Assembly: GCF_048403405.1 (NCBI RefSeq)
Contig: NZ_CP183129.1
DNA: 64,000 nt
DNA from: Escherichia coli
GTDB lineage: Bacteria; Pseudomonadota; Gammaproteobacteria; Enterobacterales; Enterobacteriaceae
Direction: 5' to 3' (one strand)
Shown here piece after piece: positions 51,296 through 51,448 of this stretch (the stretch's first letter is position 1; every line of letters begins with the position of its first letter). Made by a program: the position numbers and the translations under genes. Below the pieces are notes generated by a model that was given only the letters and a program-made list of their open reading frames with translations, was not told the origin of the DNA and did no database searches.

Positions 51296-51305
51296 TGCTG
51301 TGAAA

Positions 51306-51430
51306 TGCCGGATGCGGCGTGAACGCCTTGTCCGGCCTACAAAACCGAAACGTATGTAGGCCTGGTAAGGCGCGTCAGCGTCGCATCAGGCAGTTGTTGT
51401 CGGATAAGGCGTGAAAGCCTTATCCGTCCT
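51306..51430. repeat. BIME / REP cluster between malE and malF
   Basis: Three REP units in alternating orientation: TGCCGGATGCGGCGTGAACGCCTTGTCCGGCCTAC, GTAGGCCTGGTAAGGCGCGTCAGCGTCGCATCAGGCAG, CGGATAAGGCGTGAAAGCCTTATCCG. Confidence 0.75.
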
Positions 51431-51448
51431 GGAATGAGGAAGAACCCC

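Follow-up and report, generated by a model that had tools for sequence, protein, structure and literature searches.

The window analysed in this study is a stretch of 64,000 nucleotides from the chromosome of Escherichia coli (NCBI RefSeq assembly GCF_048403405.1, contig NZ_CP183129.1), read on one strand from 5' to 3'. According to its list of open reading frames, malK lies on the minus strand and is followed by malE, malF and malG, all on the plus strand. The region of interest is the malE-malF spacer, which comprises exactly the 153 nt (51296-51448) lying between the stop codon of malE and the start codon of malF. REP units and their linkers occupy 126 of these 153 nt (51307-51432), and what remains is an 11-nt stretch behind the stop codon together with the ribosome-binding region of malF. 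The individual features are:

50105-51295, plus strand: malE, the periplasmic maltose-binding protein gene and stabilised upstream cistron (396-aa open reading frame; stop codon TAA at 51293-51295)
51296-51306, plus strand: post-stop gap, 11 nt from the malE stop codon to the stem foot of REP1
51307-51340, plus strand: REP1, y type in iREP orientation, an imperfect palindrome ending in CTAC at 51337-51340 (nhmmer E-value 1.9e-5, match 51308-51340)
51341-51355, no strand assigned: head-to-head linker of 15 nt, AAAACCGAAACGTAT, between CTAC and GTAG, without an IHF site
51356-51391, minus strand: REP2, z1 type, beginning with GTAG at 51356-51359 when read on the plus strand (nhmmer E-value 4.2e-5, match 51357-51391)
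51392-51398, no strand assigned: tail-to-tail linker of 7 nt, AGTTGTT, between REP2 and REP3
51399-51432, plus strand: REP3, a degenerate y-type terminal unit (nhmmer E-value 1.7e-3, match 51400-51430)
51427-51448, plus strand: malF translation-initiation region, with the Shine-Dalgarno sequence GAGGAAG at 51436-51442
51449-52993, plus strand: malF, a permease subunit gene with its ATG at 51449, part of the rapidly decaying downstream segment

The malE-malF spacer of K-12 MG1655 is also 153 nt long and is identical to that of the window at 151 of 153 nt. The malE gene of the window differs from that of K-12 at 10 of 1191 nt, and the encoded MalE at one residue (Q279H). A second E. coli record, which matches the spacer at 100%, has both malE and malF annotated with a gap of likewise 153 nt between them; by BLAST, this record is 97-98.7% identical to the window with several indels. 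Existing annotation resources do not flag the element: the annotation table of NC_000913.3 carries no REP features at the malE-malF locus, and an Rfam 15 scan of the whole window assigned the spacer to no family, the only matches in the window being sraL, STnc430 and the lysine riboswitch. No promoter-like sites were found in the spacer, and a scan for terminators (a stem followed by a T-run) returned no site in 51296-51448 on either strand. An intrinsic (Rho-independent) terminator was accordingly rejected for the spacer, as a G+C-rich stem directly followed by a T run was not found.

The first-pass annotation of this DNA, made from the letters alone, had described three REP palindromes of alternating orientation that fill the malE-malF spacer. 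We searched the window with nhmmer using consensus sequences of the E. coli REP classes y, z1 and z2, which recovered every REP site that the annotation had named. At an E-value of 0.01 or lower, nine matches were obtained in the real window compared to none in 40 whole-window shuffles. Three of the nine are the units listed above, and their identity is borne out by their inverted and direct repeats and by the folding of each unit. All three resemble a REP class consensus, REP3 being y-like. Their lengths (34, 36 and 34 nt for REP1, REP2 and REP3, respectively) fit the published definition of a REP as an imperfect palindrome of 30-40 nt with a GTAG tetranucleotide 5' to the stem foot (CTAC in the inverse orientation) and a stem mismatch needed for binding by the transposase TnpAREP (PMC3333891). 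The arms of REP1 form an inverted repeat (51307-51320 and 51323-51336), and both REP1 and REP2 retain the stem mismatch or internal loop and the CTAC/GTAG tetranucleotide, whereas REP3 has neither.

More specifically, REP3 is a direct repeat of REP1, with 82% identity over 33 nt at a spacing of 92 nt. It therefore shares the orientation of REP1, and the order of the three units is plus, minus, plus, which agrees with the alternation that had been described. Its stem is a perfect inverted repeat of 10 bp (51401-51410 with 51417-51426, 100% complementary and free of mismatches), and its head is replaced by GTCCTGG, with CCTGG standing where CTAC is expected. The annotation had also stated that the REPs fill the spacer, and this is accurate: its coordinates, 51296-51448, are exactly those of the spacer, in which 126 of 153 nt are REP or linker.

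REP1 to REP3 are extragenic, lying between the malE stop and the malF start, and the window holds six further REPs, all of them intergenic. These are the elements that had been reported at five other junctions, and each was recovered as a strong nhmmer match, with the junctions placed by BLAST: one at yjcO/gltP (730-765), one at acs/yjcH (11197-11230), one at tyrB/alr (29725-29757), a y plus z2 pair at plsB/ubiA (42586-42619 and 42657-42684) and one at malM/lamB (47171-47201). Where the window and another E. coli strain differ by indels, these coincide with REP sites. The family is dispersed well beyond this region: among the matches listed, a 206-nt query spanning the spacer hits at least 27 to 78 places per E. 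coli genome.

We then considered the spacer as RNA. Its minimum free energy (MFE) is -73.9 kcal/mol compared to a mean of -47.2 kcal/mol for dinucleotide shuffles (z -7.6), and none of 200 shuffles was as stable. Folded singly, REP1, REP2 and REP3 reach -20.3, -20.7 and -18.5 kcal/mol, so that each forms the stable stem-loop by which the three-palindrome description was to be judged. Two overall folds are available. In one, the three units form local hairpins with a summed energy of -59.5 kcal/mol. In the other, which is the MFE structure, REP1 and REP2 pair with each other in a long imperfect duplex of about 40 bp (about -52 kcal/mol; -51.9) and REP3 forms a separate hairpin. REP1 is transcribed first and can fold before REP2 exists, so that either fold may dominate in the cell. 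A stable hairpin without a U tract stands at the 3' boundary of malE, as expected of an mRNA 3' stabiliser.

The element had been called a three-unit BIME. The three units and their alternation stand; the name BIME needs the qualifier 'atypical', and the third unit is decayed rather than canonical. A BIME-1 combines z1 with y, occurs singly and has a long conserved L linker in which an IHF site is frequent; in BIME-2, z2 is joined to y by a short S linker and the copies stand in tandem; atypical BIMEs are hybrids with features of both classes, found in multiple copies whose number varies (PMC3333891). The malE-malF element resembles BIME-1 (RIB/RIP) in that y and z1 lie head to head in inverse orientation, and its y plus z1 composition fits that class. 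It differs in that its linker is 15 nt long and devoid of the IHF consensus WATCAANNNNTTR (no match in the spacer compared to eight elsewhere in the window), in its third unit, and in the tandem amplification of its module in sister species where BIME-1 is single-copy; membership of BIME-1 was rejected because of the linker and the tandem amplification. With BIME-2 (the gyrase target) the element shares a short head-to-head linker and tandem amplification, but the inverted unit is best described as z1 (36 nt, with a GACGC...GCGTC inner stem) and not z2, and membership of BIME-2 was likewise rejected. The malE-malF element is thus an atypical BIME, composed of y and z1 with a short linker and present in 1.5 to 6.5 copies across Escherichia.

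The first-pass annotation had further proposed that these elements stabilise the upstream malE mRNA and so produce differential expression of the binding protein and the permeases. This is a known property of the locus and matches published decay experiments (PMC5927463). The malEFG operon is the founding case of differential operon decay (Dar and Sorek, 2018; PMC5927463): in E. coli K-12, the half-life is 3.5 min for malE compared to 1 min for malFG, and malE owes its stability to a protective 3' RNA structure between malE and malF which, once an endonuclease has cut, withstands the processive 3'-5' exonucleases PNPase and RNase II (PMC5927463). Genome-wide, hairpins of this protective kind as a rule have no U tract and no significant termination by Rho, and the ribosome load of stabilised genes exceeds that of their unstable neighbours by a median of 4.7-fold (PMC5927463). 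For most differentially decaying gene pairs, with malEFG among the operons listed, the ratio of half-lives closely matches the ratio of steady-state levels (PMC5927463). REPs more generally act as exonuclease barriers that stabilise mRNAs and decay intermediates (PMC12306157), and the degradosome component RhlB assists PNPase in passing REP structures (PMC1616957). In a published experiment, a REP sequence in the malE 3'UTR raised MalE expression, and malE-malF RNA is in published use as a routine structured substrate in exoribonuclease and degradosome assays. The original papers are reportedly two by Newbury et al. (Cell, 1987) and one by Khemici and Carpousis (2004).

Taken together, we are confident that the REP cluster is an exonuclease barrier that gives malE a longer mRNA life than malFG. 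The elements, their fold, their fixation in E. coli and the occurrence of some strong structure in this slot in all genera examined are observed in this study, and the decay pathway and the half-lives come from published work; which fold forms in vivo and what each REP unit contributes are what we infer. Under this model, the transcribed spacer would form either three hairpins of about -20 kcal/mol each, or the REP1:REP2 duplex of about 40 bp together with the REP3 hairpin. An endonuclease (RNase E) would cut the poorly translated malF-malG part of the transcript, and PNPase and RNase II would degrade the cut part in the 3'-to-5' direction until the REP structures stop them at their foot. A protected 3' end would thereby remain on the malE segment, which would survive several times longer, and this longer survival would yield far more binding protein than membrane subunits from one promoter. 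Fragments ending in REPs would finally be removed by the degradosome through the RhlB helicase and PNPase, aided by poly(A) polymerase.

The spacer shares with the protective 3' stem-loops of other differentially decaying operons both a stable hairpin without a U tract between a long-lived and a short-lived cistron and the identity of the stabilised gene, the substrate-binding subunit of an ABC transporter. It differs from them in that its hairpins derive from a dispersed mobile repeat family and not from a locus-specific structure. The malE-malF REP cluster is an already known textbook feature whose published interpretation holds, and the locus is the classic case of how differential mRNA decay can give genes within one operon widely different expression levels. 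To find it in a window of E. coli DNA is nothing new and amounts to a positive control.

We examined how far the spacer varies within the species. Of 5426 complete E. coli genomes, 5421 match a 351-nt query spanning the spacer, and 5413 have a single match that covers at least 80% of the query and always lies under annotated malE and malF. Seven alleles chosen across the range of identity are all 153 nt long, about 98% identical, and fold with an MFE of -65 to -74 kcal/mol. The K-12 REP/PU cluster agrees with that of the window in locus, in its length of 153 nt and in its units and their orientations, and differs by two substitutions, both A>G changes in REP2 that are private to the window (51365 and 51370). 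These convert two A-U pairs of the local hairpin to G.U, and at the same time convert two C.A mismatches of the REP1:REP2 duplex to C-G pairs. The possibility that they strengthen the overall fold was rejected, the energies being essentially equal (-73.9 kcal/mol for the window and -74.3 kcal/mol for K-12).

Across the seven alleles, pairing is kept in 99.6% of cells on the three-hairpin model and in 95.0% on the long-duplex model. Six stem positions are variable. At five of them the change is a transition that keeps the pair on the mRNA-sense strand (A-U to G.U, G-C to G.U, or U.G to U-A), and at the sixth a transversion in one strain breaks a stem pair. Because a Watson-Crick transition keeps sense-strand pairing only about half the time, the five pairing-preserving transitions out of five (probability about 0.03) are suggestive of constraint at the RNA level, the sample being small (n=5). 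No compensatory double changes were found in the seven alleles, and shuffles equal the observed covariation, which neither supports nor opposes either fold.

Comparison with other Escherichia species shows how the array is built. It is a tandem repeat of a 92-bp module (y unit, 15-nt linker, z1 unit, 7-nt linker) followed by one closing y unit, and the same or a very similar AGTTGTT linker recurs within the 92-bp arrays of the other species. The forms found are:

E. coli: 1.5 units, 3 REPs, spacer of 153 nt
E. albertii: 4.5 units, 9 REPs, spacer of 428 nt
E. whittamii: 4.5 units, 9 REPs, spacer of 428 nt
Escherichia sp. E1V33: 6.5 units, 13 REPs, spacer of 611 nt
Escherichia sp. MOD1-EC7003: at least 3 units, at least 6 REPs, the contig piece ending inside the array

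For the E. albertii array, Tandem Repeats Finder returned a period of 92, 4.1 copies and 92% matches. When this array was used as a query, no expanded array was found in E. coli among the best 25 records, in all of which the query collapses onto about 254 bp, as expected of the short form. The number of REPs ranges from 3 to 13 among Escherichia species, a point against the barrier model in that their precise number evidently matters little.

The terminal unit of the array is distinctive. In every Escherichia species compared, the unit adjacent to malF ends in ...TATCCGTCCTGG instead of ...TATCCGGCCTAC, and REP3 is the positional homologue of the terminal unit in the arrays of 9 and 13 REPs. 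This shared truncated ending identifies REP3 as a conserved, head-truncated terminal unit and not a chance look-alike. Its 5' arm carries AA in E. coli and MOD1-EC7003, which gives the perfect 10-bp stem, and GC in E. albertii, E. whittamii and E1V33. Experimental removal of the stem mismatch abolishes both binding and cleavage by TnpAREP (PMC3333891). Because REP3 has lost both GTAG/CTAC and the stem mismatch, each needed by TnpAREP, it is predicted to be immobile; judged by its sequence, it would be invisible to the REP transposase while forming a perfect RNA hairpin.

Beyond Escherichia, a scan of species-representative genomes with a DNA pattern anchored on the conserved start of malF retrieved 45 enterobacterial loci, from which 41 complete malE-malF spacers, that of the window included, were extracted. 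The shortest spacers (63-64 nt; Kluyvera, Huaxiibacter and an Enterobacter MAG) hold one CCCTCTCCC...GGGAGAGGG hairpin, and those of 82-85 nt hold one other palindrome. Spacers of 119-125 nt (Enterobacter cloacae, Leclercia, Lelliottia, Trabulsiella and others) contain paired palindromes that are not of the E. coli type, and those of 126-132 nt (many Citrobacter, Kluyvera ascorbata) contain pairs of palindromes, most of which score as E. coli-type y plus z2 and look like single BIME-2 units. In spacers of 186-189 nt (Salmonella enterica diarizonae, Citrobacter youngae, Kosakonia and Phytobacter), we found an ERIC core matching the standard ERIC1R and ERIC2 primers. The ERIC/IRU element is like the REP cluster in occupying the same malE-malF slot with a long imperfect hairpin; it differs in being a single element of an unrelated family that is absent from the E. 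coli spacer.

All 41 spacers fold better than their own dinucleotide shuffles, with a median z of -5.5 and a weakest value of -1.1, the weakest few (-1.1 to -1.7), from other genera, being marginal and a point against the barrier model. The presence of structure in every genus is consistent with selection for a stable fold just behind malE whatever the repeat that provides it, the alternative being a permissive landing site; the decay pattern itself is reported to be conserved in Salmonella and Enterobacter (PMC5927463).

The landing-site alternative leads to the strongest of the competing explanations, namely that the cluster is a selfish passenger: REP/BIME elements would proliferate through the REP-associated tyrosine transposase and local amplification, the spacer would simply tolerate them, and the effect on mRNA would be a by-product. 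We regard this as possible but doubtful. REP1 and REP2 do keep the GTAG/CTAC motif and the stem mismatch that TnpAREP needs, the 92-bp module stands at 1.5, 4.5 and 6.5 copies in different Escherichia species, other mobile repeats occupy the slot in other genera, the indels between the window and the other E. coli strain are at REP sites, and a varying copy number is part of the published description of atypical BIMEs (PMC3333891). A selfish origin is nevertheless compatible with a present function, and it accounts for the origin and the copy-number variation without conflict with the barrier model. Furthermore, several observations argue against a mere passenger: a functional effect is evident from published work on deletion and decay (PMC5927463); some strong structure occupies the slot in every genus sampled; the 3-REP form is near-universal in E. 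coli, at 153 nt in every allele aligned (n=7); and REP3 has lost both features recognised by the transposase yet gained a perfect stem.

These comparisons allow a broader and more speculative proposal, which we put forward tentatively and hold to be somewhat less probable still than the passenger explanation. Selection may maintain a hairpin slot immediately 3' of malE, refilled time and again by the mobile repeat that is active in a given lineage; it would act on structure and not on sequence, copy number within Escherichia would dial the ratio of MalE to MalFG, and the terminal unit of E. coli would represent a domesticated REP. On such a reading, Escherichia would fill the slot with y/z1 REPs, Citrobacter with y/z2 REPs, Salmonella with ERIC, and Enterobacter and Kluyvera with palindromes of the CCCTCTCCC type. 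The 92-bp module would range from 1.5 to 6.5 units, and the terminal REP would have lost GTAG and the mismatch and gained a perfect stem.

Parts of this comparative picture were reportedly noted in the older literature. With respect to the barrier model, the refinements made here (the atypical-BIME class, the 92-bp module whose copy number depends on the species, the terminal REP that is predicted to be immobile, and the replacement of one structured repeat by another, unrelated one in the slot) leave the picture unaltered. As by-products, the comparative results are modestly useful for understanding how selfish repeats become post-transcriptional regulators.

The exonuclease-barrier model must also be weighed against explanations that act before or alongside decay. 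Under transcriptional attenuation, the BIME would partially terminate or pause RNA polymerase between malE and malF and so lower the transcription of malF and malG. BIMEs are reported to attenuate transcription (Espeli et al., 2001, as summarised in PMC12306157), and the very stable REP1:REP2 duplex (-52 kcal/mol) is followed by the U-rich AGUUGUUGU. We nonetheless think attenuation unlikely, given that the terminator scan finds no stem with a T-run in the spacer, that decay-boundary hairpins lack a U tract or significant Rho termination, and that half-life ratios match steady-state ratios for most pairs (PMC5927463).

Equally improbable in our estimate is control at the level of translation, which could take two forms: REP1 could stall terminating ribosomes and trim MalE synthesis, and/or the UCCU at the 3' end of REP3 could mask the malF Shine-Dalgarno sequence and expose malF mRNA to RNase E. 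For the first form, a REP that begins within 15 nt of a stop codon is reported to make terminating ribosomes stall, so that the gene upstream of it is expressed less (Liang et al., 2015; summary in PMC12306157), and REP1, at 11 nt, lies within that distance. Placed beside the barrier model, this proximity is a point against it, as the stalling literature predicts lower upstream expression, the opposite direction. MalE is however a highly expressed product, and REPs raise rather than lower its expression (PMC5927463). For the second form, the UCCU (51427-51430) pairs with AGGA (51437-51440) as a 4-bp helix in the MFE structure; the helix overlaps the Shine-Dalgarno sequence and is invariant in the seven alleles, and the excess of ribosomes on stabilised genes (median 4.7-fold; PMC5927463) counts in favour of translational control. 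Yet a 4-bp helix is weak and expected by chance, and other genera carry a different sequence ahead of the Shine-Dalgarno (GTAGAGGAAGA); any role for the UCCU:AGGA helix is one that we infer from the predicted structure.

Compared with the exonuclease-barrier model, a role at the DNA level, in which the cluster would bind DNA gyrase, IHF or DNA polymerase I and serve as a topological or nucleoid-organising element and not through RNA, is very unlikely: REP/BIME elements are indeed reported to bind all three proteins (PMC3333891 among the sources), but it is through the long L linker that BIME-1 binds IHF and the 15-nt linker here lacks the IHF consensus, the cited gyrase work concerns BIME-2 (y plus z2; PMC12306157) where the malE-malF element is y plus z1, and the five stem transitions preserve pairing, as G.U, on the mRNA-sense strand only, an observation that at n=5 is only suggestive of an RNA-level constraint.

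The malE-malF BIME (a cluster of REP palindromes, here of classes y and z1) is built from a 92-bp y-z1 tandem module, the copy number of which varies among Escherichia species, as follows.

REP units in the malE-malF BIME of Escherichia species
E. coli: 3 REPs
E. albertii (locus L011, 6753-7132): 9 REPs
E. whittamii (L030): 9 REPs
Escherichia sp. E1V33 (L025): 13 REPs
Escherichia sp. MOD1-EC7003 (L037): at least 6 REPs

The arrays of all these species have in common a truncated head (...TCCGTCCTGG) of the terminal unit. Compared to K-12, the spacer of the window strain carries only two A>G changes, at 51365 and 51370, both located within REP2. 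Local pairs are retained as G.U, two C.A mismatches in the REP1:REP2 duplex are mended, and the predicted stability shows no net shift. Upstream, MalE of this strain differs from K-12 by Q279H (codon 279, 50939-50941).

Outside Escherichia, the same slot is occupied in enterobacterial genera by structured repeats that are unrelated. More specifically, the loci compared, namely L036 (S. enterica diarizonae), L017/L018 (Citrobacter), L034 (Kosakonia), L042 (Phytobacter), L047/L032/L046/L014, L012/L051/L026 and others, provided the following contents.

Contents of the malE-malF slot in other genera
ERIC/IRU core, in spacers of 186-189 nt
palindromes of CCCTCTCCC/GGGTGAGGG type
further palindromes bearing GTAG
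y+z2 pair

Folding was stronger than in shuffled sequences for every malE-malF spacer (41/41; median z -5.5).

Elsewhere in the window, the tyrB/alr and plsB/ubiA spacers hold the following elements.

29696-29708, exact IHF consensus (TATCAACTTATTG), tyrB/alr spacer
29725-29757, single y-type REP, tyrB/alr spacer
42586-42619 and 42657-42684, y + z2 pair in inverse orientation, plsB/ubiA spacer

The plsB/ubiA pair is a BIME-2-like unit; DNA gyrase is reported to target BIMEs of this type. Because the exact IHF consensus lies 17 nt from the y-type REP, the tyrB/alr spacer could hold a remnant resembling BIME-1/RIB. IHF-consensus matches number 8 in the window against 2.7 expected, a count reached in none of 100 shuffles.

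Aligned to another E. coli strain (NZ_CP033635.1), the window is 97-98.7% identical outside breakpoints and indels, which fall at 729-765, 11206-11395, 35381-35410 and 47169-47200. The REP sites at yjcO/gltP, acs/yjcH and malM/lamB coincide with or adjoin such positions, a placement that fits BIMEs as hot spots of intergenic polymorphism. Missing from NZ_CP033635.1 is a segment of about 1.6 kb containing a pentapeptide-repeat ORF, which is flanked by actP and yjcE and which we take to be the counterpart of K-12 yjcF.

13551-14843, + strand, pentapeptide-repeat ORF, 430 aa, Pfam PF13599 and PF00805

The Rfam matches at gathering score, all expected as normal for this E. coli region, are:

18559-18699, sraL sRNA
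58963-59112, STnc430 sRNA
61007-61203, lysine riboswitch upstream of lysC
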